The notes: generated by a model not told the origin, from the sequence alone. A stretch of DNA of 64,000 nucleotides from Candidatus Woesebacteria bacterium GW2011_GWB1_38_8b (GCA_000993115.1 LBVN01000007.1:3587-67586), one strand, 5' to 3'. Counted from the first letter of the stretch, positions 913 to 38,109 are shown. Program-made: numbers and translations.

Positions 913-1119
913 TTAAACAAAAAGAAGAGAGATAGATATAATTATAAAAAAGATAACGAGTACGAAACTGAGTTTAAATACAATTTGTTCAAGTCCCCTG
1001 CGTGTAAATGAAGCTCCGGATAAACTTCTTCCGAAACCGGTTCCTTTCGATTGTATTAATATAAAAACTACAATCGAAGCTGAAACTAAAATTTGTGTAA
1101 ACAAAAGTATTTCTTTCAT
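913..1119 (-). CDS. secG: preprotein translocase subunit SecG
   Basis: 68 aa with two TM segments and a central QSKGTGFG...RRGLE motif typical of SecG. Confidence 0.8.
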   Translation of the reverse strand: MKEILLFTQILVSASIVVFILIQSKGTGFGRSLSGASFTRRGLEQIVFKLSFVLVIFFIIISISLLFV

Positions 1120-1140
1120 CGCACCTGTTATTATAGCAAA

Positions 1141-1259
1141 CTCAAAACAAAATGACAGATTTACTTCTTTACATTTTGAGATTGATATAAAGTTCCAAGT
1201 TCACCTTGGTAGGAATTCTATGCTTGCCAAACAAAATGTCAAAAACTAACATTTTGTTT
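1141..1259 (+). promoter_or_regulatory. rearranged third copy of the intergenic promoter/palindrome module
   Basis: CTCAAAA...TTTACATTTTGAGATTGATATAAAG is followed by the perfect palindrome AAACAAAATGT (1229-1239) / ACATTTTGTTT (1249-1259). It is homologous to the modules at 13750-13848 and 31821-31908 but carries about 23 extra nt, and no plus-strand gene lies downstream. Confidence 0.4.
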
Positions 1260-1314
1260 TAATATGACTATATACTTTAAAATAATCTAAATTGCATGGA
1301 TTTTTAGTATCGAA

Positions 1315-1716
1315 TTACTTTGTGAGCCAATAAAAGAATGAGGTTATGAGCGAAATAATAAAAGAAAATCCAACGTACGCATAAAACCCCGGTAGATTAA
1401 TTTGAGGGATGTCTATCCAAACGTTGTTAAAACCGGAGAATAAAAATCCGGTAACCCGAAAATCTTTAATTATAAGAGTTACTATAAATAGAACTATTGC
1501 CGAAGACACCCAGCGAAAAAGACCAAATGTAACCAAGTTTAGCGGGAGAAGCAAAATATTTATGACTGGTTTCGCGAGAAGTGAAACCAAAGCCATTACA
1601 ATACCTGTGAGAAACAAGGTTTTGTAATTATTCCCGAAAACCATACCGGTTGCCAGCTTTGATGCGATATATATTGCAAACGTATCAATTACGAAGTGTC
1701 GTAAAAGGCCTTTCAT
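1315..1716 (-). CDS. small 4-TM membrane protein, phage-holin-4 / DUF360 (YvlD-like) family
   Basis: Family-like sequence begins at MKGLLRHFVIDTFAIYIASKLATG (ATG at 1714-1716). The ORF-track version (to 1866) gains 50 extra residues by reading through repeat copy A. Confidence 0.6.
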   Translation of the reverse strand: MKGLLRHFVIDTFAIYIASKLATGMVFGNNYKTLFLTGIVMALVSLLAKPVINILLLPLNLVTFGLFRWVSSAIVLFIVTLIIKDFRVTGFLFSGFNNVWIDIPQINLPGFYAYVGFSFIISLITSFFYWLTK

Positions 1717-1870: not shown

Positions 1871-3325
1871 TTATTTAATTATACCAACAAGATTCCGCTT
1901 TATTAAAATGTGATGGTAGCGTCGGGCAAATCTATGTGCTTCATTTCTTATTTTTTGTACAAAATTCAAAGCAGGACCTCTTTTTAGCTTCACTAAAACA
2001 TATTCACTCTGATTTTTTATATCAGTTTCGAGAAAACCACGGGTGGTAGCCCTTGGATGAATCGAACCTGATATGTCATCCTCCTTTGGAGGTAGCGTTC
2101 GCTGAATGCGAACGGACGGTGAGGATGTCATAAAAACAAGAGTTTCTTCGCGTTTCGCGATTCCGACAACAGGAATGTTGTGGCTTTTAAAGACACTGTT
2201 AAATTTTGAAACTTGACCTTTTCCCCCATCTACAATAATTAGATCAGGTCTCCCCCACTTAGTAAGATAACGGACCCTTCTTTTTGCAACTTCTAAAAGA
2301 GAGTCGGTATCGCTGTTTCCTTTTGTCTGTCTTATCCTAAAATGCCGGTAAAAACTTTTATCTGCAACTCCGTTTATAAAAGTAACCATTGAAGCGGTTG
2401 GAAAATTTCCTGAAATATGAGCGATATCATAACACTCGATTCTTTTAAGATTGTCAATTTTGTAATAAATATTTACTAACTTCTGAAGCCGGTTTATTTC
2501 GTTATCAATTATATCTTCAATTAAATTTGGATTCTCAAAATATCCGGATGGCGCTTCGTGTGAGTGGATAATATAGTTTATTGCATCAATTTTTTCTTTA
2601 TAAAACGAAGCGTTTTCAAAATCTTCTCTCTGAGATGTCTGTTTCATCTCTTTTTCAAACTCCAGCAGTAGATTATTAACCTTACCATTTAAAGCTTTTT
2701 TCAAATAATCAATATTTTTTTTATATTGCAATTCGAGTGTGTGTTTTTGTTTTTCATCAGTACATTTGGCTATATTACTTGGGCAAGGATTACAAAGTCC
2801 GATATGGGAGTAGAAGCATGGCCTGACATCTTGTTTGTGCACTGCATAGGGAAAAATTCTACGAAATGTTTTCAATACGATATGAACGTTTTTACCAGAT
2901 AAAAAAGGACCGTAAGTAATGCCTTTTATATTTCCCAAATCACTTTTTCTTGCTGTTTTGACCCAGGGATATTTATCTTTGACTATCACAATATATAACG
3001 GAGTTTTATCGTCTTTAAGTTGAATGTTATATTTTGGCATATATTTTTTAACCAAAAATGATTCCAAAAGGAGGGACTCAATTTCGGAATTGACAACAAT
3101 TATTCCGAAAGTTTTAGTGTTTCTAACAAGTTCAGTTGTTTTTGTTCCGAGATTTGTTCCTAAATAACTTTTCAGCCTGTTTTTTAAACTCCTGGATTTT
3201 CCGACGTACAAAACCAAACTATGGGAGTCATAAAACAAATAAATACCGGGAAGCTCAGGACACAAAGAGACGTTTTCGAGGTTAAATGATTTTTTCTTTA
3301 GAATGTTTTTTATAACTTCACTCAT
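1871..3325 (-). CDS. uvrC: excinuclease ABC subunit C carrying a 36-codon insertion and lacking the C-terminal (HhH)2 domain
   Basis: GIY-YIG N-terminus (PGIYLFYDSHSLVLYVGKSRSLKNRLKSY), a UVR-like segment, the endonuclease region (RIECYDIAHISG) and IRNEAHRFA. The gene ends 17 aa after HRFA. The 4-nt ATGA overlap with the upstream gene suggests an operon. Confidence 0.85.
   Translation of the reverse strand: MSEVIKNILKKKSFNLENVSLCPELPGIYLFYDSHSLVLYVGKSRSLKNRLKSYLGTNLGTKTTELVRNTKTFGIIVVNSEIESLLLESFLVKKYMPKYNIQLKDDKTPLYIVIVKDKYPWVKTARKSDLGNIKGITYGPFLSGKNVHIVLKTFRRIFPYAVHKQDVRPCFYSHIGLCNPCPSNIAKCTDEKQKHTLELQYKKNIDYLKKALNGKVNNLLLEFEKEMKQTSQREDFENASFYKEKIDAINYIIHSHEAPSGYFENPNLIEDIIDNEINRLQKLVNIYYKIDNLKRIECYDIAHISGNFPTASMVTFINGVADKSFYRHFRIRQTKGNSDTDSLLEVAKRRVRYLTKWGRPDLIIVDGGKGQVSKFNSVFKSHNIPVVGIAKREETLVFMTSSPSVRIQRTLPPKEDDISGSIHPRATTRGFLETDIKNQSEYVLVKLKRGPALNFVQKIRNEAHRFARRYHHILIKRNLVGIIK
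2024..2131 (-). repeat. structured repeat element, copy B (108-109 nt), in frame inside uvrC
   Basis: It shares the 71-nt core with copy A and is translated as MTSSPSVRIQRTLPPKEDDISGSIHPRATTRGFLET. Without these 36 codons the GIAKRE...EAHRF spacing is 39 aa, against 40 aa in my recalled B. subtilis UvrC sequence. Confidence 0.85.
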
Positions 3326-8131: not shown

Positions 8132-10113
8132 TTAAACTGCTTAATTTTATCCCTAAATGCAATCGCAAGTTCAAAGTTCAAATCATCTGCGGCTGTGCGC
8201 ATTTCCCGACGTAACTTTGCAATAAGCTTTTTCTGCTCCATTGGGGTTAAACTTGACGATTCAAAATCAAGCTTCCTGGTCGAAACTTTCAGTAACTTTA
8301 TTTCTTAAGGGTTTTTGAATTGAAGTCGGAGTAATATTGTGAATTTTATTATATTCGACCTGATATGCTCGTCTTCTGTCTATTTCTGATAAAGCGGCTT
8401 CGATTGATTTCGTTCTTTTGTCTGCATATAAAATAACTTTGCCTTCAACGTGTCTGGCGGCGCGTCCCATTGTCTGGATTAAACTTACGCGGCTTCTTAA
8501 AAACCCTTCCTTGTCTGCATCTAAAATTGCAACCAAAGAAACTTCAGGAAGATCTAGTCCTTCACGGAGTAAATTAACTCCAACTATTACATCAAATTTA
8601 CCTCTTCTTAAGTTATCCAGAATGTCTGTTCGTTCCAAGGTATCAATATCCGAGTGCAAATAATTTACTTTTATTCCTTGCCCCCCAAGATATTCTGATA
8701 AATCTTCTGCGGTTTTTTTTGTTAAGGTTGTTACCAAAGTTCTCTGACCTTTTTTTGTGATTTTTATTATTTCTTCTATAACATCTTTTACCTGATTTTT
8801 AATCGGTCTTATTTCAACCAACGGGTCCGGAATTCCGGTTGGCCTTACAAGTTGTTCGGTAACTCCATTTTCTTTTGGGTTATTGTTATATGCGTTGGCA
8901 GCCGACTGGTAAGCATTATTTAATTCCCATTCGTCGGGAGTTGCACTTGTGGCAATAAAACGTGGAATTCTTCTTATAAATTCCTCAAATTTTAAAGGGC
9001 GGTTGTCAATTGCAGCAGGAAGCCTGAAGCCGTAATCGATTAATGTTTTTTTACGAGATAAATCTCCTGCGTACATACCCCGTACTTGTGGAAAGGTAAT
9101 ATGACTCTCGTCGGCAACAAGTAGCCATTTATCTCCGAAAGACTTCTTAAAATAGTCCAGGAGCGAGTAAGGGGCATCTCCGGGGTTTCTTCCGTCGAAA
9201 TATCTTGAGTAATTTTCAATACCTTTGACATAGCCTACTTCGGAAAGCATTTCAAGGTCATACTTTACGCGTTGAGAAATTCTTTGGGCTTCGATAAACT
9301 TTCCTTCCGAATTAAACAAATCTACCTGTCTTTGTAGATCGCTTTTAATATTTGCAATGGCGCCTTTATTTTGTAAAGGGTCAGTGATGAAGTGTTTAGC
9401 CGGGTACAAAACATAATTTGTTAATTTCCCCTTTGCCTTGGGTGCTGATGGAGTTAAAATTTTGGTTCCGAAAGATGAAATTAATCCAAAATATTATTAT
9501 TTTCCCATTCGGTGTTGTGGTGAAAGGTAAAATGAGGGTAGTTTTTCTTAACCACATCAATTAAATATCCGCCAATAAAATGGATATCCTTTAAGCCGTT
9601 AACGGAAAAATTCTCCAAAGCCCGGTCCAGCATGCTTTTACCATTAACTTTAGTAAAACCTTTAGGAACCTTGGCAGAATAAGGCATTATCCTGTTTCCC
9701 CGCCCTGCTCCAATAATTATTATTAATAAATTTGTCGTTGCACCCAGCCTGAGTTTGTCTATTAAATCATTTATGTCGGAATCTTTTTCGATATAGGTAT
9801 CGGTTGAAGGAATATAAGCTTCGGGCTGGTAATAATCATAGTACGAAACAAAATAACTGACAGCATTTTCAGGAAAAAAATCCCGGAATTCCTGGTAAAG
9901 TTGGGCGGCTAGGGTTTTATTGTGTGAAAGTATTAAAGTTGGAAGCTGCGTTCTTTCAATTACGTTTGCAATCGTAAAAGTTTTACCGGAACCCGTAACA
10001 CCCAAAAGAACCTGATTATCAATACCCCGTGATATGTTTTTGGAAAGCTTTTCAACTGCATTTTTTTGGTCTTCAATAAGATCGTATTCAGATTTTATTT
10101 TAAATTTGTTCAT
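8128..10113 (-). pseudogene. uvrB: excinuclease ABC subunit B, disrupted: internal replacement, frame change and 3' frameshift
   Basis: 9724-10113 encodes the UvrB N-terminus ([10 protein letters not shown]...[10 protein letters not shown]...RLGATTNLL). 8267-9480 encodes UvrB from about KILTPS...YPAKHFITDP to the helicase C-terminus, in a different frame. The UVR domain (MEQKKLIAKLRREMRTAADDLNFELAIAFRDKIKQFN) is in a third frame and ends at 8128. Confidence 0.8.
9481..9723 (-). other. 5' fragment of a nucleotidyltransferase (NTP_transferase, LicC/MobA-like) gene embedded in uvrB
   Basis: (L)[80 protein letters not shown] matches the N-terminal roughly 80 aa of sugar-phosphate/choline-phosphate nucleotidyltransferases (GxGxR signature). 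It is fused in frame to UvrB residue 130 and ends in a stop. Confidence 0.65.
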
Positions 10114-12480: not shown

Positions 12481-13749
12481 TTATTTTGCTGAAGCAAGTT
12501 CAGCCTCAATACTTAAGAGTCGATTATATTTTGCGACACGTTCTCCTCTTGCCGGAGCACCGAATTTTACAAAATCGGATCCAATTCCCACCGCAAAATC
12601 AGCAATAAACCAGTCATTAGTTTCACCCGATCGGTGTGAAGTAATGACTTTCCAGTTTGCTTCGCGTGCACGCTTCACTACCAAAAGTGTTTCCCAAACA
12701 GTACCAACTTGGTTTGGTTTAACTAAAATTGCATCGCATGCTTTTTCTGCTATGGCTTTTTCAACTCGTTCGGTGTTTGTAACAAGCAGATCATCTCCTA
12801 CAACCGTCAGTTGTCCCTGGAAAGATTCATATAACTTTTTCCAGCTTGCCCAAGCATCCTCATGCAGAGGATCTTCAATGTGAGACATGTGATACTGACT
12901 GTTTAAGTATTTGTAATAATCAATTAATGCGTCATCCGAAAGCGGTGTGGACTTATCACGGATTGTATAATTTCCGTTTTTGTAAAAAACTGATGCGGCG
13001 ACATCCAGTCCCAAAAATACATCACGGCCGATTTGGTAAGTTGTTTCCTTAATTGATTCAAAAAGAACTTCCAACGCATCGGCGTTTGTAAACAAATTAG
13101 GAGCGTAGCCTCCTTCGTCGCCGACCGAGTGGATTGCACCTCTTCTCTCTAGGTTTTTTCCTAGTGTAATATAAACTTCAACACCAATCTTTAGTGCCTC
13201 CGAATAATTTTTGCTGGTTGCAGGAATAACATGGAACTCTTGAAAATCCAAATTTCCCGCTCCATGAAGACCTCCGTTTATCATGTTAAATACCGGGGTA
13301 GGCACCTTTAGGGCTGCATTTATACCTGCTCTTTTGGCAAGGGTATTTGTCCAAGCGTAAAGTGAGGTATTTTGTGCCATAGCGGCAGCTTTTGAATTGG
13401 CTGCAGATATTGAAAGTATTGCATTTGCACCAAATTTCGATTTATTTTTTGACCCATCAAGATCGATGAGCCTTTTATCAATAGCAGCCTGATCAGTTGA
13501 GTCTAATCCCCAAATTCCGGGTCCAAGTGTTTCATTTACATTTTTTACAGCCTTAGAAACTCCTTTTCCGTCATAGTTTGCAGGATCGTTGTCACGCAAA
13601 TCAACACACTCATAGGTTCCTGTTGAAGTACCTCCGGGGACAGAAGCCACCGCAGTGTGACCGGTATCAAGCTGAACAACTGTCTCTACAGTCGGTAACC
13701 CCCTTGAATCAAGAATTTGCCTTGCCCAAACTTTTGATACTTTGCTCAT
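12481..13749 (-). CDS. eno: enolase
   Basis: ARQILDSRGLPTVE at the N-terminus and SHRSGETND later. The start is set at the ATG at 13747-13749 (MSKVSKVWARQ). Confidence 0.9.
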   Translation of the reverse strand: MSKVSKVWARQILDSRGLPTVETVVQLDTGHTAVASVPGGTSTGTYECVDLRDNDPANYDGKGVSKAVKNVNETLGPGIWGLDSTDQAAIDKRLIDLDGSKNKSKFGANAILSISAANSKAAAMAQNTSLYAWTNTLAKRAGINAALKVPTPVFNMINGGLHGAGNLDFQEFHVIPATSKNYSEALKIGVEVYITLGKNLERRGAIHSVGDEGGYAPNLFTNADALEVLFESIKETTYQIGRDVFLGLDVAASVFYKNGNYTIRDKSTPLSDDALIDYYKYLNSQYHMSHIEDPLHEDAWASWKKLYESFQGQLTVVGDDLLVTNTERVEKAIAEKACDAILVKPNQVGTVWETLLVVKRAREANWKVITSHRSGETNDWFIADFAVGIGSDFVKFGAPARGERVAKYNRLLSIEAELASAK

Positions 13750-13848
13750 ATATTTATAATAGATCAAAATGTTATTTTAATAAATAACATTTTGATTAAA
13801 AAAAGTATTACTATATATCAAGCTCAAATATATTTATAACAGAGCTTG
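13750..13848 (-). promoter_or_regulatory. conserved promoter/palindrome module upstream of eno
   Basis: The minus strand reads AAGCTC-16 nt-GAGCTTGATATATAGTAATAC-7 nt-AATCAAAATGTTA-10 nt-TAACATTTTGAT-c-TATTAT-6 nt-ATG. The perfect 12-bp arms are 13763-13774 and 13785-13796. It is near-identical in layout to 31821-31920. Confidence 0.55.
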
Positions 13849-13883
13849 CTTTAATTTAAAATAACACAAAAAGTATTGTTTTG

Positions 13884-24031: not shown

Positions 24032-27000
24032 TTAATTTGCGAGGTTTTCTAATATTTGCTCGATAGAATGGGCCATCTGGGTGTCCCAATTAATTTTTAC
24101 GTTTAAATCGAGCTGTTTATTTATTTCTCCTTCAAAAACAAGGCAGACTTTATGATCACCCGGATTTTTTAATATCAATTCTTTAAGGCTGGATAATTTT
24201 TCCGTCCCAGTCCCTTTAGGGATTCTTATAAATAATTTATTATCTTCAGTAATTATTTCCTTTTCGTTTTTAATTGACTCAACTATAAGTGAAGGCTCTT
24301 CGTCACGAAAATCAATTTTTCCTGATAATAAATAAGGATTGCTGTCCGTAAGAATTTCTTTTGTTCCGCTAAAAATACTTGGGAAAATAACTACATTAAT
24401 TGTTCCTGTTTCATCCTGAAATTTTGCAAAAGCCATTTCTTGTCCGCTTTTTTTTGTAATAATTACCCTCAAATCATTAATTATACCGGCGATGTTTACT
24501 TCCATTCCTTCTGATCCTGTTATGTGATTATCAAATATATCGCTTATTTTAAAGTTGGATAATTTATTAATGTTTTTCAGGATTTCACCGTTTGGATTTC
24601 TTCGTCGGTAAACTCGTCGATATCCTGACCCATCAAATTGTCAAACTTTAAAGAAGTTGAGTTTAAATCTGAAAGTGAAAACAGTTCATTTTGGTTTTCA
24701 TTTTTGAGAGCTTTACCTGAATATTTTTTATACTCCTCAACCACTTTCAGAAGTTGTGATCTTTTACCAAAGTCCGATAAAGCACCTACTTTGATTAAAC
24801 TTTCCAAAACCTTTTTGTTTACCCTTCTTCCATCTACTCTTTCCAAGAAGTCCAGGAAATTCTTAAATTTCTCTTTATTTCGTTCAGTTAATATAGCATC
24901 TATTGCAGCATTCCCTACGTTTTTAATAGCGCTTAAACCAAAGCGAATCCCTTTTTTATGACTTGAATCAACAGTTTCTTCAATATCAAACCCAACAGAA
25001 CTTTTATTAATATCGGGTGATAAAACTTTTACGTCCATTCTTCGGCATTCATTTATGGCTTCGGTAATTTTATCAGTGTCATTGCTTTCTGCAGTCAAAA
25101 GCGCACACATGTACTCAACAGGATAGTTCGCCTTCATATAGGCGGTTTGGTACGCGACTAACCCGTAACTTGCAGCATGTGCTTTATTAAAGCCGTAAGA
25201 TTGAAAAGGTTCAAATAATTTCCATAGATCTTCTGCAAATTTCCCGGTTTGTCCATTGTCAACTATACCTTTTATGAATTTTTCTTTCTGCGCCGCCATT
25301 TCTTCGGGAATTTTTTTACCTACCGCTTTTCTGAATTTGTCAGCTTCTTCCCAGGAATAACCTGCCAAATCAAGTGCACAGAACAATAGATCGTCCTGAT
25401 AAACTAAAAGACCGTACGAAGCTCCTAAGAATTTTTCCATTCTCTTGTCTAAAAATTTTACGAGAGTTGGATCGTGCTTTCTTTTGATGTACTCAGGGAT
25501 TTGTTGAATAGGCCCGGGGCGATAAAGCGCTACCATTGCCATTAAATCTTCAATTCGGGTTGGTTTTAACTCTTTTAAAAATTTTGTCATGCCTGAGCCT
25601 CCCAATTGAAAAGTGCCCATTGTTTCTCCTCGAGCTAGCATCTCATATGTTTTTTTATCGTCAAGGGGAATGTCATTAATTTTTATTTTTGTCCCGTACC
25701 TTTCTTCAACAATTTTTATGGCAGCCCCCAAAATAGATAAATTCCGGATTCCTAAAATATCAAATTTAATTAGTCCAACATCTTCACAGGTATGGAATTC
25801 ATATTGAGTAATAATTTTGTCGCCTGATGGCTCAAGCTGTACTGGAGAATAATCGGTAATTTCAGTGGGTGCAACCACAACTCCTGCTGCGTGTACCGAG
25901 AGATGTCTTGCCGATCCTTCAAGCTGTATAGCTAAGTCTAAAATCTTTTTAACATCAGCATCACTTTTATACATATCGTTTAGTTCGCTAACTTCTTCCA
26001 GAGCTTTCGGAACTGTAATAGGGAAACCCTGTTTTGGCGGAGGGATGAGTTTTGCTACCTTGTCTCCTGTTGCATATGGATATCCTAAAACACGTGCCAC
26101 ATCACGTACAGCCGCTCGGGATAGCATCCTTCCGAATGTACAAATTTGTGCGACCTTGTCATGGCCGTATTTATCGGAAATATATTTTATGATTTCTTCT
26201 CGTCTGTCGTCGGCCACGTCGAAGTCAATATCCGGAGGAGAGGGTCTGTAAGGATTTAAAAAACGCTCAAACGGTAAATAATACAAAAGTGGATTTATTG
26301 TGGTTATTCCTAAAACAAAAGAGACGAGTGAGCCTGCCGCAGAACCCCTTGTATTTGTAATAATCCCCTGTTCGTTGCTCCACCTTGCGAGATCCATAAC
26401 AATTAAAAAATATGGCGAGTAACCCTTTTGGCAAATTATATCTAGTTCGTAATTTAATCTTTCTTCTTCTTCTTTGCCTGATTTAGGAATTATAATTTTT
26501 AAGTTTTCGTGTGAAAGTCTTCTTAATTCCTCATCGGGTGTTTTCCCTTTGGGCAAACTGAATTTAGGAAAAAACCATTTGCCTAAAGTAATTTCCAGTT
26601 CGCACTTTTGGGCTATCTTTACGCTGTTTTCTATTGCATCCGGGATATCAGAAAATATTTTCTGCATTTCATCGGGTGTTTTTAAATAAAAGTCCGGATT
26701 ATCTATATATCGTAAGCGCTTTATGTCGCCTACGTTTTTCCCTGTTGCAATGCAAACCAAAGCATCCTGAGCAGGAGCGTCTTCCTTTTTAATATAATGA
26801 GCATCGTTTGTTGCTACTAATGGAATACCGAATTCACGGCTTAATTTAATCACTCCATCTTCATACTTTTTACAATTATCAGCAACTCTCTCGAGATCAG
26901 ATTTTAATTCAGGAATTTTTATATCTGGTAATATACTCTCGTAATTATGCCGTTGTATTTCCATATAAAAATCGTCTTTAAAAACATCTAAATAAAACTC

Positions 27001-27465
27001 TGCCAACTTTGATGCTTCCAGGTAGTTTTCATTTATAAGGCTTTGCGGTATTTGAGCGGCTGGACATCCTGAAAGACAAATTAAGCCTTCACTGTATTTT
27101 TTAAGGATTTCGTTGGTAAAGCGAGGTCTGTAATAAAATCCTTCAATATGTGCAATCGATGTAAGTTTCATCAGGTTTTTATATCCGGCTATATTTTTTG
27201 CTAAGAGAGTGAGGTGATAGTTGTCTTTAACCTTTTCGGTAAGAGACGTTGTTACATATCCTTCAAGTCCAATAATTGGCTTTATTCCTTGTTTAATCCC
27301 TTCTTTGTAGAACTCTATTGCACCATACAACTCTCCATGGTCAGTGATTGCAACGGCATCCATATTGTTTTCACCAATATGCTTAAAAAGCTTTTTTATA
27401 TTGCTTAAGCCGTCAAGAAGAGAATACTCAGTATGAACGTGAAGATGTACAAATTTTGCGGACAT
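24032..27465 (-). CDS. dnaE: DNA polymerase III alpha subunit, split into two ORFs by a frameshift near 24577-24613
   Basis: 24577-27465 encodes the PHP, palm/fingers and HhH regions (FVHLHVHTEYSLLDG...). The OB-fold and C-terminal tail (MEVNIAGIINDLRVIITKKSGQEMAFAKFQDETGTINVVIFP) are in another frame that is open from 24613 downward. The fused length would be about 1143 aa, normal for DnaE. Confidence 0.8.
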
Positions 27466-31761: not shown

Positions 31762-31820
31762 ATTAAGTAAATCTTCACTATTGTACAGCAAAAAGTTAGT
31801 GGTTAAAATGGATTTATATT

Positions 31821-31908
31821 AAGCTCAAAAAATTTTACATTTTAAGCTTGATATATAGGAATACAGTTTATAATCAAAATGTTAGTATTAAAATCTTACA
31901 TTTTGATT
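31821..31908 (+). promoter_or_regulatory. conserved promoter/palindrome module upstream of the 31921 membrane-protein gene
   Basis: AAGCTC-17 nt-AAGCTTGATATATAGGAATAC-7 nt-AATCAAAATGTTA-12 nt-TACATTTTGATT-TAATAT-6 nt-ATG. The arms are 31872-31882 and 31898-31908. Confidence 0.55.
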
Positions 31909-31920
31909 TAATATGAATAT

Positions 31921-32283
31921 ATGGATAAGCCTCCTGCCTTGGTTAAGAAAGACAGATTTATTATTATATTTTACGTACTTTACTTCGGTTGGCTTCTTTT
32001 GACCACCTATTTAAGCCGAGACGATTTTTATAATAATTTACTCATATCTTTTGTAGTTATGATTTACTTTATATTTCTAAACGAAACTTTTGATCTGTTT
32101 TTGTTTTTGGGTATTACTCTCCTTTCATATTACTTGATGGGTAAGCTTTATGGTTATCCCGGTATCGTATTTACGCTAGAGTCTATAAAAACAATGCCTC
32201 TTTGGATTTATATTTCTTGGGGTTTTACAGCAGTTGCTCTTAAGAAACTTTTTTCAATGATTATAAGAAGGGTTGAAATATAA
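31921..32283 (+). CDS. hypothetical 4-TM membrane protein
   Basis: 120-aa hydrophobic ORF with no recognised family. Confidence 0.5.
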   Translation: MDKPPALVKKDRFIIIFYVLYFGWLLLTTYLSRDDFYNNLLISFVVMIYFIFLNETFDLFLFLGITLLSYYLMGKLYGYPGIVFTLESIKTMPLWIYISWGFTAVALKKLFSMIIRRVEI

Positions 32284-36483: not shown

Positions 36484-38109
36484 CTAAACTGATTTTCCGA
36501 AGTTATAGAAAAGGAAGCTGTAATCAATTATGTCAACAATTCCATCTCCATTAATATCTGCCCTCTCGTCGAATGGTGTTTTTGCAAAATTGTAAAACAG
36601 TATTCCGTAATCAACAATATCAACCCCACCATTGACGTCACAATCGCCAGGAAACGCAATTCTGACAACTCTATTAAGAGCAAAGCCAAGTCGGTCATTA
36701 GAAGCAGCGAGATTCCAGGTGAACGAAGAACTGTTCGTTACAGCAAAATCGCACGAATAGACATTATTAACATTTGCAGAATTATAAAAACATAATCTGC
36801 TCAAATTACCGTTAGCCAATTGAGAAAACTCTAAAGTTCTCTGTCCACCACAGTCCTTAAAATCAGCTACAGACGCTTGTAATCTAACGGTAGTCGTACG
36901 TGAATTAAATATTACCATGTCAGCAGGTAAAATAAGGTTGTTATTAAAGATTGGTGTACCTAATGCACAAGTCGGAGTTGGAGTAAAAGTAGAGGTAGGA
37001 GTTAAAGTGAAAGTAGGCGTAACGGTTGCTGTAGGAGTCGGAGTATTTGTCGGGGTATTAGTCGGTGTATTAGTCGGTGTATTGGTGGGTGTAGGCGAAG
37101 GTGTCCAGTTTCCAGTAGCTGTATCTTCATTGTTGGTTTCGTTGAGCTCGATAATAGTATTGGTATAATCTACATACGCCCGATAGTTATACCAACCATT
37201 AACTGTTCCATTGGGAACAGTCTGGGTGACTTGATAAGATTGATTTACACCAAGGCCAGTCGTTCTAGTATTTAATAATGCTAATGAATTATTCGGGTTA
37301 GTACATCCACTTGTCGTGCAGTAAGCTGTATGCAACCTAATAGAGGTACCAGAGGGAATTGCGGCTGTACCATTATTGCTTACTGTTGTTGTAAATGTGA
37401 AAAGGCTATTTCCTACAACTCCTGCGCTCGGAATAAAAACAGTCAAGTCAGGTCGTAAAGCTATAGTTGGGGTCGGTGTGTTTGTAAAAGTTGGAGTCGG
37501 AGTATTGGTAAATGTTGGAGTTGGTGTTCTAGTTGGGGTTGGAGTGCTGGTTGGTGTCGGTGTAGGTGTTCCAACAACTAAATTCAAATTAGTGGTATTT
37601 TGTAAAACATTATTCCCTGGGTCTTCCAAGGAAGCAACTAAAGTTCCGGTACCAAAAGTCACAGAGGTACTTGGAGAACTCGAAAAAGGTGCTGAAGCTA
37701 TAATGGTTGCTACGAGACCAGGAGTAGTTGCATATACTCTTGTTGCAGGATTTATCCAAACAACGTAGAAAATTGTTCCGGCAACGTTATCAATTTCTTT
37801 TTTTACTACATCCACCTGACCCGGTAGAAATGTGCCTAAGGTGACATCGCTTACGTTAATATACCTGGGGTCGAAGTGAATATCCAACTGAACTCCAATA
37901 ACCTGGTTATTTCCAGGCGTTGCGTTGACATCAATAGAAAAACTCTGTCCGGGGTGAATTAAAGTAGTATTAGTTGTCATGGAAAGGCTGGTAGAAGGAG
38001 CTGCCTCTTCTCTAATATCCTGGCTGGATCTTAAAAGGTAGATTCCTATAAATGCACCGACTGCAATAATTAACACCACTAAAAGTTGAAGCATTACCTT
38101 CTTTGACAT
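36484..38109 (-). CDS. secreted multidomain protein: cohesin-like domain, TP linker, CARDB domain, TP linker, unknown domain, type-I dockerin
   Basis: Signal anchor. Cohesin-like segment FSIDVNATPGNNQVIGVQLDIHFDPRYINV. CARDB-like PDLTV...NNGTA...VDYTNTIIELNETNN. Dockerin repeats DVNGGVDIVDY and DINGDGIVDIIDY. Confidence 0.65.
   Translation of the reverse strand: MSKKVMLQLLVVLIIAVGAFIGIYLLRSSQDIREEAAPSTSLSMTTNTTLIHPGQSFSIDVNATPGNNQVIGVQLDIHFDPRYINVSDVTLGTFLPGQVDVVKKEIDNVAGTIFYVVWINPATRVYATTPGLVATIIASAPFSSSPSTSVTFGTGTLVASLEDPGNNVLQNTTNLNLVVGTPTPTPTSTPTPTRTPTPTFTNTPTPTFTNTPTPTIALRPDLTVFIPSAGVVGNSLFTFTTTVSNNGTAAIPSGTSIRLHTAYCTTSGCTNPNNSLALLNTRTTGLGVNQSYQVTQTVPNGTVNGWYNYRAYVDYTNTIIELNETNNEDTATGNWTPSPTPTNTPTNTPTNTPTNTPTPTATVTPTFTLTPTSTFTPTPTCALGTPIFNNNLILPADMVIFNSRTTTVRLQASVADFKDCGGQRTLEFSQLANGNLSRLCFYNSANVNNVYSCDFAVTNSSSFTWNLAASNDRLGFALNRVVRIAFPGDCDVNGGVDIVDYGILFYNFAKTPFDERADINGDGIVDIIDYSFLFYNFGKSV
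36970..37104 (-). repeat. coding tandem repeat (TP/TNTP linker 2)
   Basis: Encodes TPSPTPTNTPTNTPTNTPTNTPTPTATVTPTFTLTPTSTFTPTPT. 12-nt units such as ggtgtattagtc are visible on the plus strand. Confidence 0.8.
37443..37569 (-). repeat. coding tandem repeat (TP linker 1)
   Basis: Encodes TPTPTPTSTPTPTRTPTPTFTNTPTPTFTNTPTPT, including a duplicated TFTNTPTPT unit. Confidence 0.8.

Follow-up and report, generated by a model that had tools for sequence, protein, structure and literature searches.

The 64,000-nucleotide stretch of Candidatus Woesebacteria bacterium GW2011_GWB1_38_8b analyzed here (GCA_000993115.1, LBVN01000007.1:3587-67586; about 35% GC; called the window in the following) carries the enolase gene eno on its minus strand (12481-13749, 422 aa, Pfam Enolase_N and Enolase_C) and, on its plus strand, a gene for a 120-aa membrane protein (31921-32283). 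The latter protein has no Pfam match and no family assigned; it belongs to a small group of relatives in which the gatC neighborhood is conserved. Both genes are preceded by a similar module of about 100 nt, which a sequence-only reading of the window had taken for one regulatory cassette, composed of a promoter and a palindrome, shared by two unrelated genes. On the evidence presented here, the module is probably a non-autonomous, TA-duplicating miniature inverted-repeat transposable element (MITE) of Woesebacteria, which serves as a portable promoter suited to leaderless genes.

The modules are found where they had been reported, upstream of eno (ATG at 13749-13747, minus strand) and of the open reading frame (ORF) at 31921, and the claimed likeness holds at the level of the bases, with 79% mean column identity in the alignment and a longest gap-free block of 53 nt that is 83% identical. 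The -10-like hexamer said to stand 6 nt ahead of each ATG is TATTAT in the eno copy (13761-13756, minus strand; followed by AAATAT) and TAATAT in the membrane-gene copy (31909-31914, plus strand; followed by GAATAT), the spacing being exact in both. The full eno element extends over 13751-13853 (minus strand), compared with the range 13750-13848 first reported, and consists of a 99-nt body (13851-13753) between TAs at 13853-13852 and 13752-13751, the ATG of eno lying 1 nt past the right-hand TA. The membrane-gene element (31815-31921, plus strand) has a 103-nt body (31817-31919) between TAs at 31815-31816 and 31920-31921, the second of which provides the A of the ATG. The left terminal repeat of the eno copy and a first hairpin (AAGCAAGCTC...GAGCTTGATATATAG) occupy 13811-13851 (minus strand, alignment A4), and the palindrome of a second hairpin (AATCAAAATGTTA...TAACATTTTGATC) occupies 13762-13797, with an RNA folding energy of -13.9 kcal/mol (z = -5.8) and covariation across copies. 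The corresponding palindrome of the membrane-gene copy, recovered by palindrome search and RNA folding, lies at 31872-31908.

An additional copy, absent from the sequence-only reading, is present at 1132-1272 (plus strand), between secG (913-1119, minus strand, 68 aa, Pfam SecG) and the 3' end of a holin-like gene. It is 141 nt long including TATA at both ends and represents the canonical form, while the eno and membrane-gene copies are short variants that constitute a divergent subfamily. An nhmmer search with a profile made from 23 copies gives exactly three matches in the window, with E values of 8.5e-23 for the secG copy, 3.9e-11 for the membrane-gene copy (31819-31920), and 2.1e-8 for the eno copy (13851-13750). 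The palindrome CAAAATG-N(11-17)-CATTTTG occurs four times in the 64 kb, far above the random frequency (shuffle expectation 0.03; four reached in 0 of 100 shuffles), and all four occurrences are inside the three element copies, two of them in that at 1132-1272. Single boxes with two or three mismatches occur in the window at chance frequency, and of these matches only the exact ones fall within the modules. The signal therefore resides in the whole module and not in any individual motif.

The comparison with relatives shows the three window copies to be precise insertions into predicted core promoters, the promoters of the sister orthologues being intact and free of the element. The closest relative of the 120-aa protein (87% identity) is encoded on JGI contig Ga0130016_10000306 (locus L245), in the conserved gatC neighborhood. 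The sequence ahead of the membrane gene there reads ...GGTTAAAATGGATTT|ATGGAAAAGCC, with a native TAAAAT, 6 nt, and the ATG, and the window has about 105 nt exactly at the bar; the empty site is GGATT-TA-TGG. The native promoter of the window gene, predicted as TGTACA-16-TAAAAT (31782-31809, plus strand; 9/12 in the consensus scan), has accordingly been pushed about 105 nt upstream by the insertion, while TAAAAT-GGATTT-ATG is contiguous in the relative. The module is likewise missing upstream of the membrane gene in the more distant relatives L246 and L247 (63% and 58% identity). On the same sister contig, the empty eno site (L363) is TTTAAAT-TA-TATGAGC, where the window has the element between two TAs, and the gap between the gene of a phosphoenolpyruvate (PEP)-utilizing, PPDK_N-family enzyme and eno measures 33 nt in the sister versus 134 nt in the window. 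The spacer between secG and the holin-like gene reads AAAGTA-TA-ATAGTAAGGCAATG in the sister (L365), without the 141-nt module, and the secG site is also empty in a relative of 71% identity (L366).

When the filled and empty sites are compared by their longest common prefix and suffix, the overlap is TA, TAT, or TATA at all three sites, as predicted by a TA target duplication; the TA always lies within a terminal TATA, so that the duplication may be 2, 3, or 4 bp long. The membrane-gene copy is present in all strains that are about 96-100% identical in the flanking genes. Together with the empty site of the sister, this indicates insertions that are fixed within one species and absent from the next. 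In a strain of about 96-97% identity, six of six differences within the element fall in its left half, one of them restoring the pairing of hairpin 1, and the promoter-proximal half is invariant. Contigs from Rifle groundwater carry an enolase identical to that of the window.

The same repeat occurs at many other sites. When metagenomes were scanned for the right-end pattern common to the copies, at least 115 loci matched, from which AT-rich chance matches and duplicates were removed. The metagenome contigs contain at least 24 distinct full-length copies, or about 30 including partial ones, with flanks that are all different and lengths of 98-143 nt; the element is non-coding, with no ORF in the copies. 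The profile finds 58 matches overall in 49 collected loci and none at the orthologous loci of the relatives. The canonical sequence can be written as TATAGCAAACTCAAAACAAAATG-(variable loop)-TTTGAGTTTGATATATAGGAATTCTATGCTTGCCAAACAAAATGTCA-(loop)-TGACATTTTGTTTTAATATGACTATA, to which some copies add a CCAAG-N5-CTTGG hairpin after GATATA. The host contigs have 33-47% GC and encode proteins 37-76% identical to those of the window, with shared gene order where they overlap. As these are contigs of related low-GC organisms, the element has spread across a clade, beyond one genome; extrapolation from three copies in 64 kb would give tens of copies per genome.

In GTDB representative genomes, the palindrome ATCAAAATGT-N7-17-ACATTTTGAT picked up unrelated hairpins among the matches listed, and the three that were inspected (two from Yanofskybacteria) were terminator-like. 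Viral contigs scanned with the palindrome or the left terminal repeat gave chance matches only, and BLAST of the canonical copy against plasmids and phages gave no match. Pairs of terminal repeats up to 4 kb apart were sought in the 0.95 Mb of collected loci; none exceeded 311 nt, and no autonomous partner was among them. The loci L289 and L294 (with their duplicates L316 and L333) hold chimeras of 200-311 nt that keep hairpin 2 and the right end and have a different palindromic sequence as their left half.

The ends of the element are imperfect terminal inverted repeats of 21-23 bp (TATAG...CTATA), in which the left repeat, TATAGCAAACTCAAAACAAAATG, and the reverse complement of the right one, TATAGTCATATTAAAACAAAATG, match at 18 of 23 positions. 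Two internal hairpins are conserved and a third is optional. Hairpin 1 is formed by the left terminal repeat and its inverted copy (the AAGCTC...GAGCTT of the sequence-only reading), and hairpin 2 is the palindrome noted there, 11-13 bp in length and made up of -35-like TTGACA boxes. In the canonical copy, alignment A4 and the folds place the left repeat and hairpin 1 (TATAGCAAACTCAAAAC...TTTTGAGATTGATATA) at 1132-1194 and the optional hairpin 3 (CCAAG-N5-CTTGG) at 1195-1209, while palindrome search and folds place hairpin 2 (AAACAAAATGT...ACATTTTGTTT) at 1229-1259. Folded as single-stranded DNA, this copy forms exactly these three hairpins (-19 kcal/mol, z = -3.7); as RNA, the hairpins have energies of -8 to -14 kcal/mol, better than shuffled sequence.

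The pairing of the three helices is maintained across the 23 copies, with 89% of the cells paired, versus 31-44% with slid partners. At one pair, 13 copies have A:U, 9 have U:A, and one is an exception; the observed covariation score is reached in 0 of 500 shuffles; the cells count sequences rather than events, and the score may thus reflect a few changes at the subfamily level. The loops, on the other hand, vary freely in length and sequence, those of hairpin 2 ranging from about 4 to 17 nt across the family. At gathering score, Rfam recognizes only tRNAs, and a permissive search of 1100-2200 has its best match (E = 0.82) outside the element. The terminator scan calls neither hairpin 1 nor hairpin 2, its only call being hairpin 3 of the canonical copy (CCAAG/CTTGG), on the minus strand. 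In a separate context, a sequence nearly identical to the right terminal repeat (TATAGTTATATTAAATCAAAATG) occurs by itself at the 5' end of a conserved TatA-like gene (MFEFIKNIGPTEL...) in four different organisms (L252, L278, L297, and L303), where the ATG inside the CAAAATG of the repeat is the start codon. This could be a co-opted solo repeat or a hint to the origin of the repeat.

The right end of the element shows how a promoter could be delivered to a gene. The putative hexamer TAATAT (TATTAT in the eno copy) is placed such that the terminal or duplicated A falls 7 nt after it. In 11 of about 30 distinct copies (among the matches listed and in the window), this A is followed by TG and opens a long ORF, a fraction that may be inflated because the metagenome search keyed on an intact right end and copies with a decayed one are under-sampled. 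In the same DNA, 5.1% of TA sites are followed by TG, which gives P = 1.3e-7 for the docking. The docked genes encode, among others, enolase, the membrane protein, a sortase, DnaE (PHP domain), a Na/H exchanger, a YkuD transpeptidase, a GT1 glycosyltransferase, a GDSL hydrolase, and AtpA. Their Pfam domains start at residues 1-11, and the docked ATGs are for this reason taken as true starts. The two ends differ in this respect, the right end alone being found at a gene start 17 times versus 2 for the left end alone (P = 3.6e-4). One copy (L299:2137-2247) ends 4 nt before the apparent 5' end of a tRNA gene (GGACACGTAGCTCAATGG...), and the portable promoter may thus drive RNA genes too.

Other predicted promoters arise at the junctions with the flanking DNA. 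At L266, L268, L274, and L330, the terminal TATA and two flanking bases would form a hybrid -10 with an ATG 5-7 nt further on, and the right arm of hairpin 2 contributes a TTGACA or ATGACA at a spacing of 17 nt on the upstream side of this -10 (TTGACA-17-TATA|NT). At secG, the insertion hit a native TATAAT, and the left junction rebuilds this hexamer from the TATA of the element and a flanking AT (1130-1135, minus strand). It is located 10 nt from the secG ATG (1119) and is scored by the scan as CTGTCA-17-TATAAT (10/12), with a TG before the -10. Within the same copy, a candidate near-consensus promoter directed leftward, TTGACA-16-TAGAAT (1215-1242, minus strand; 11/12), has as its TTGACA the complement of the left arm of hairpin 2, and the bases under it, GGAATTCTATGCTTGCCAAACAAAATGTCA, are conserved among canonical copies (alignment A4). 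The right-end TAATAT of this copy (1260-1265, plus strand) faces the 3' end of the convergent holin-like gene.

The geometry of the right end is also that of the host genes. Window genes with an upstream spacer have a TANNNT peak 6 nt before the ATG, the motif standing 5-7 nt before it in 11 of 38, whereas Shine-Dalgarno (SD) 5-mers precede 3 of 38 and 0 of 18; in the eno leader, the sole match to an anti-SD 5-mer is a chance TGATC in a hairpin arm. This suggests that leaderless or SD-independent initiation is widespread in this Woesebacterium. With the peak at 6 nt and SD motifs rare, the leaderless geometry appears to be native, and the end of the element copies it. The sigma-70 consensus scan calls the displaced native promoter of the membrane gene, the secG junction promoter, and the internal leftward promoter; the right-end TAATAT/TATTAT remain uncalled because they have no good -35.

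These results permit an assessment of the two promoter models that the sequence-only reading had proposed. The leaderless part of its second model, in which TATTAT/TAATAT act 6 nt before the ATG, fits well with the TANNNT peak at the same distance in the organism's own genes, the rarity of SD 5-mers, and the nine other copies docked alike. The first model, with TTGATA-17-TAATCA as promoter and the palindrome as a leader hairpin, finds no support. The box TTGATATATAG that contains its "TTGATA -35" corresponds to the left terminal repeat in inverted form (alignment A4), TAATCA lacks the final T of a -10 hexamer, and a start about 7 nt past TAATCA would fall inside the left arm of the hairpin, which could then not form in that transcript. 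The genes downstream of the catalogued copies are functionally unrelated, as had been claimed for the first two, and a promoter-bearing cassette is indeed shared between them. What does not stand is a conserved regulatory region: the module is wholly missing upstream of the eno, membrane-gene, and secG orthologues of the closest relative, an outcome that the sequence-only reading had itself named as speaking against it. The idea of a shared cassette is thus right and the leaderless-promoter model is favored, but the sharing is due to transposition, its cause being a mobile promoter-bearing repeat rather than a conserved regulon.

The interpretation as a promoter-carrying MITE builds on a small, non-coding sequence with terminal inverted repeats, a target duplication, and many sites that differ in presence or absence between relatives, and on a -10 hexamer 6 nt before the ATG with no SD sequence. 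We propose that a DDE transposase of the TA-duplicating kind (IS630/Tc1-mariner-like) mobilizes the element in trans. RNA polymerase would use the right-end TAATAT and start at, or just past, the end of the element, giving a leaderless or nearly leaderless mRNA; where the flank permits, TTGACA-17-TATA|NT or the left-end TATAAT would be used instead. In this way, the element would substitute for the native core promoter that its insertion disrupts, which may be why a compact genome tolerates it. Short intergenic spacers are presumably filled largely by promoter, and only insertions that bring a correctly spaced promoter are likely to survive; such a filter would by itself account for the docking bias, with no need of a dedicated targeting mechanism. 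The eno copy has a right end shorter by 2 nt and a target TA that lay 2 nt farther upstream, so that the 6-nt spacing is exact again; this adjustment could plausibly have come about if a TATATA run lost one TA after insertion. Selection would preserve the hairpins and terminal repeats because the transposase recognizes them, because the promoter needs them, or for both reasons.

Several observations weigh against this interpretation. The terminal TATA leaves the duplication length at 2, 3, or 4 bp, and the recovery of metagenome copies through their right ends may overstate docking. Start sites and promoter activity rest on sequence geometry, and the right-end promoters are omitted by the sigma-70 scan. 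In the canonical copy, the right-end TAATAT faces no gene that it could serve. The search of 0.95 Mb contains no autonomous partner with the same terminal repeats, which makes the transposase family a guess. Finally, the copies closely resemble one another although the proteins of their hosts are no more than 40-76% identical. The neutral decay of a MITE does not explain this similarity, which suggests either a recent horizontal spread or selection acting on the element as a whole. Selection of this kind would be expected if the element were a dispersed and maintained promoter-and-operator cassette, its paired TTGACA boxes being bound by a conserved, possibly transposase-derived protein, so that insertions would have built a regulon of unrelated leaderless genes (eno, secG, dnaE, atpA, the sortase gene, and others). 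The near-identity across divergent hosts and the invariant promoter-proximal half between strains would be its signs, and we regard this version as improbable.

A simpler operator, with the palindromes as sites of a dimeric transcription factor over the -35/spacer region and with eno, the membrane gene, and secG co-regulated by it, either alone or as a function borne by the element, appears less probable still. It would account for the conservation of the palindromes with compensatory changes that keep their symmetry, for their position directly upstream of the -10 hexamer, and for an overall conservation across divergent hosts beyond that predicted by neutral decay. However, the site is missing from the orthologous promoters of all three genes in the nearest relatives, and no palindrome stands free at any other window promoter, four of four being within element copies. 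The spacing between CAAAATG and CATTTTG (11-17 nt in the window, about 4-17 nt for the hairpin-2 loops of the family) is a poor fit to a rigid dimer. The downstream genes are functionally unrelated, and the neighbors of the copies (gatC, the gene of the PEP-utilizing PPDK_N-family enzyme, and the holin-like gene) include no candidate regulator. A LexA SOS box was also considered, lexA being about 3 kb from eno, and was rejected since the palindrome belongs to an insertion missing from relatives that keep lexA. We know of no noteworthy resemblance to Fur, BirA, NrdR, or CodY-type sites.

The remaining explanations concern the origin or the product of the repeat. The two imperfect subterminal hairpins of related sequence, one per end, with stems preserved by covariation and loops free to vary, are what one would expect of an element handled as a single strand by a transposase that recognizes subterminal hairpins, such as an IS200/IS605-type palindrome-associated element or a REPIN moved by a RAYT. 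To our knowledge, however, IS200/IS605 elements lack terminal inverted repeats and insert without a duplication, whereas the present ends are inverted repeats at 18 of 23 positions and a TA duplication fits three of three empty-site comparisons. Nor is there a conserved 4-5 nt target 5' of the left end, the three bases before TATAG including AAT, TTA, TTC, ATT, TAC, and TCC, and such an origin is accordingly unlikely. A transcribed RNA element, in the form of a 5'-leader hairpin, attenuator, or terminator between the PEP-utilizing enzyme gene and eno, is very unlikely. The folding energies of -8 to -14 kcal/mol, better than shuffled, and the location of the eno copy downstream of the stop codon of the enzyme gene would agree with it, but no Rfam family matches, no terminator is called at hairpin 2, which lacks a proper T-tract, and a terminator would have no function in the membrane-gene copy, whose neighboring genes diverge. 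The defective TAATCA, with its start site in the left arm, and the nature of the element as an insertion with terminal repeats are further arguments against it. The least credible explanation is the duplication of a promoter by recombination or gene conversion between similar promoters, without transposition. The native target sites do resemble the right end of the element (TAAAATGGATTTA vs TAATATGAATATA), and recombination is often invoked for small families of reused promoters with 2-3 copies (PMC3488235). Here, on the contrary, at least 24 distinct full-length insertion sites are found in many organisms, the boundaries are defined by terminal inverted repeats with TA on both sides at three of three tested junctions, and the secG insertion lies within a TATAAT box, with no extended homology.

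It is instructive to compare the proposed promoter-carrying MITE of Woesebacteria with systems already described. The nearest in function are the Correia repeat enclosed elements (CREE) of Neisseria, which start with TATAG and likewise duplicate a TA. Typically 104-108 or 153-157 bp in length, CREE are bounded by terminal inverted repeats, duplicate their target, give rise to promoters at either end, and contain stem-loops that act on RNA (PMC2649163). The Woesebacteria element is similar in its length variants, its many copies, its presence or absence between relatives, its internal inverted repeats able to form RNA hairpins, and, as far as sequence geometry goes, the generation of promoters at its ends. 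In the "Black promoter" of CREE, the -35 and part of the -10 are within the element and the flank completes the -10, while the "Snyder promoter" has its -10 in the terminal 6 bases (PMC2649163); the former corresponds to TTGACA-17-TATA|NT and the latter to the TATA terminus that rebuilds TATAAT at secG. On the other hand, the host phylum and the sequence are unrelated, and no site for integration host factor is known in the Woesebacteria element. The latter also carries a complete -10 placed so that the terminal A opens the start codon, a leaderless docking that is not described in PMC2649163, and has two or three separate hairpins instead of the one long terminal-repeat stem of CREE. The Correia core motifs CCGGTACGG and TCAGGACAA (PMC2649163) are both absent from the consensus of alignment A4. 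The element would thus work like CREE but is no member of the Correia family.

A broader frame is given by the survey of 1362 complete genomes by Matus-Garcia et al. (2012), "Promoter propagation in prokaryotes" (PMC3488235). In keeping with the putative mobile promoters defined there, the eno and membrane-gene copies are 79-83% identical and the genes downstream are unrelated, and mechanism (ii) of that work, non-autonomous elements emulating terminal inverted repeats, fits the present case. The survey predates the genomes of the Candidate Phyla Radiation (CPR) and describes neither start-codon docking nor this family. The terminal inverted repeats and the TA target duplication are shared with MITEs derived from IS630/Tc1-mariner elements, but membership in that group is a conjecture, neither a cognate transposase nor a full-length element being found in 0.95 Mb. 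REPINs and elements derived from IS200/IS605 are similar as short extragenic palindromic repeats with conserved hairpins, long persistence, and a highly conserved sequence; they differ from the Woesebacteria element in that the latter has terminal inverted repeats and a TA duplication, with no RAYT/TnpA gene and no fixed target tetranucleotide seen. The outward-facing hybrid -35/-10 promoters of insertion sequences also have an element end supplying promoter parts that activate or maintain a neighboring gene, whereas the present element is non-coding, about 120 bp long, and would provide a whole -10 and the start site. In the literature, which was incompletely covered, we found nothing relevant on MITEs in Patescibacteria/CPR or on MITEs with leaderless promoters; this is weak evidence of novelty.

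Some other features of the window deserve mention. A second, unrelated repeat, richer in GC than the MITE and containing several short palindromes, is present at 1734-1830 and 2017-2113 (94% identical over 97 nt) and is also missing from the sister genome. One copy is an in-frame insertion of 99 nt (33 aa) in the C-terminal part of UvrC (uvrC, 1871-3325, minus strand; 484 aa vs 450 aa), which recalls the Rickettsia palindromic elements; the other fills the spacer between uvrC and the holin-like gene (1315-1716, minus strand), which measures 154 nt vs 28 nt. Relative to L001, an assembly of the same strain that is otherwise 100% identical, the window lacks segments of 51, 41, and 59 nt and has about 290 nt unaligned. 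The differences lie at about 10700 (lexA), about 9430-9720 and 8270 (uvrB), and about 7960 (uvrA), with the result that LexA is 17 aa shorter and the uvrB and uvrA ORFs are broken; the missing segments are probably assembly artifacts, small indel elements being the less likely alternative. An alternative genetic code was considered for these broken ORFs and rejected, as the two assemblies differ by indels of 41-59 nt. The DnaE ORF (24577-27465) encodes 962 aa compared with 1159 aa in near-identical cluster members and is probably another assembly truncation. A GT-rich unit of 40 nt (GTnGGnGT-type) is present in six direct-repeat copies at 36969-37569, with 60-80% identity to the reference copy; its location within a 541-aa ORF (36484-38109, minus strand) points to a low-complexity repeat protein.

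CPR bacteria, whose genomes are very small and densely packed, are almost uncharted with respect to transcription and regulation. The element described here would be a mobile sequence that survives in such a genome by inserting into core promoters and replacing them, its last base being the putative first base of a leaderless mRNA. It supplies a candidate promoter for an uncultured phylum and serves as a natural marker by which recent genomic changes between Woesebacteria species can be traced. It also offers a concrete case of promoter reuse by transposition, in which insertions bringing no promoter would probably be lost. For annotators, it is a caution that conserved upstream motifs in these genomes may be repeats and not regulons.

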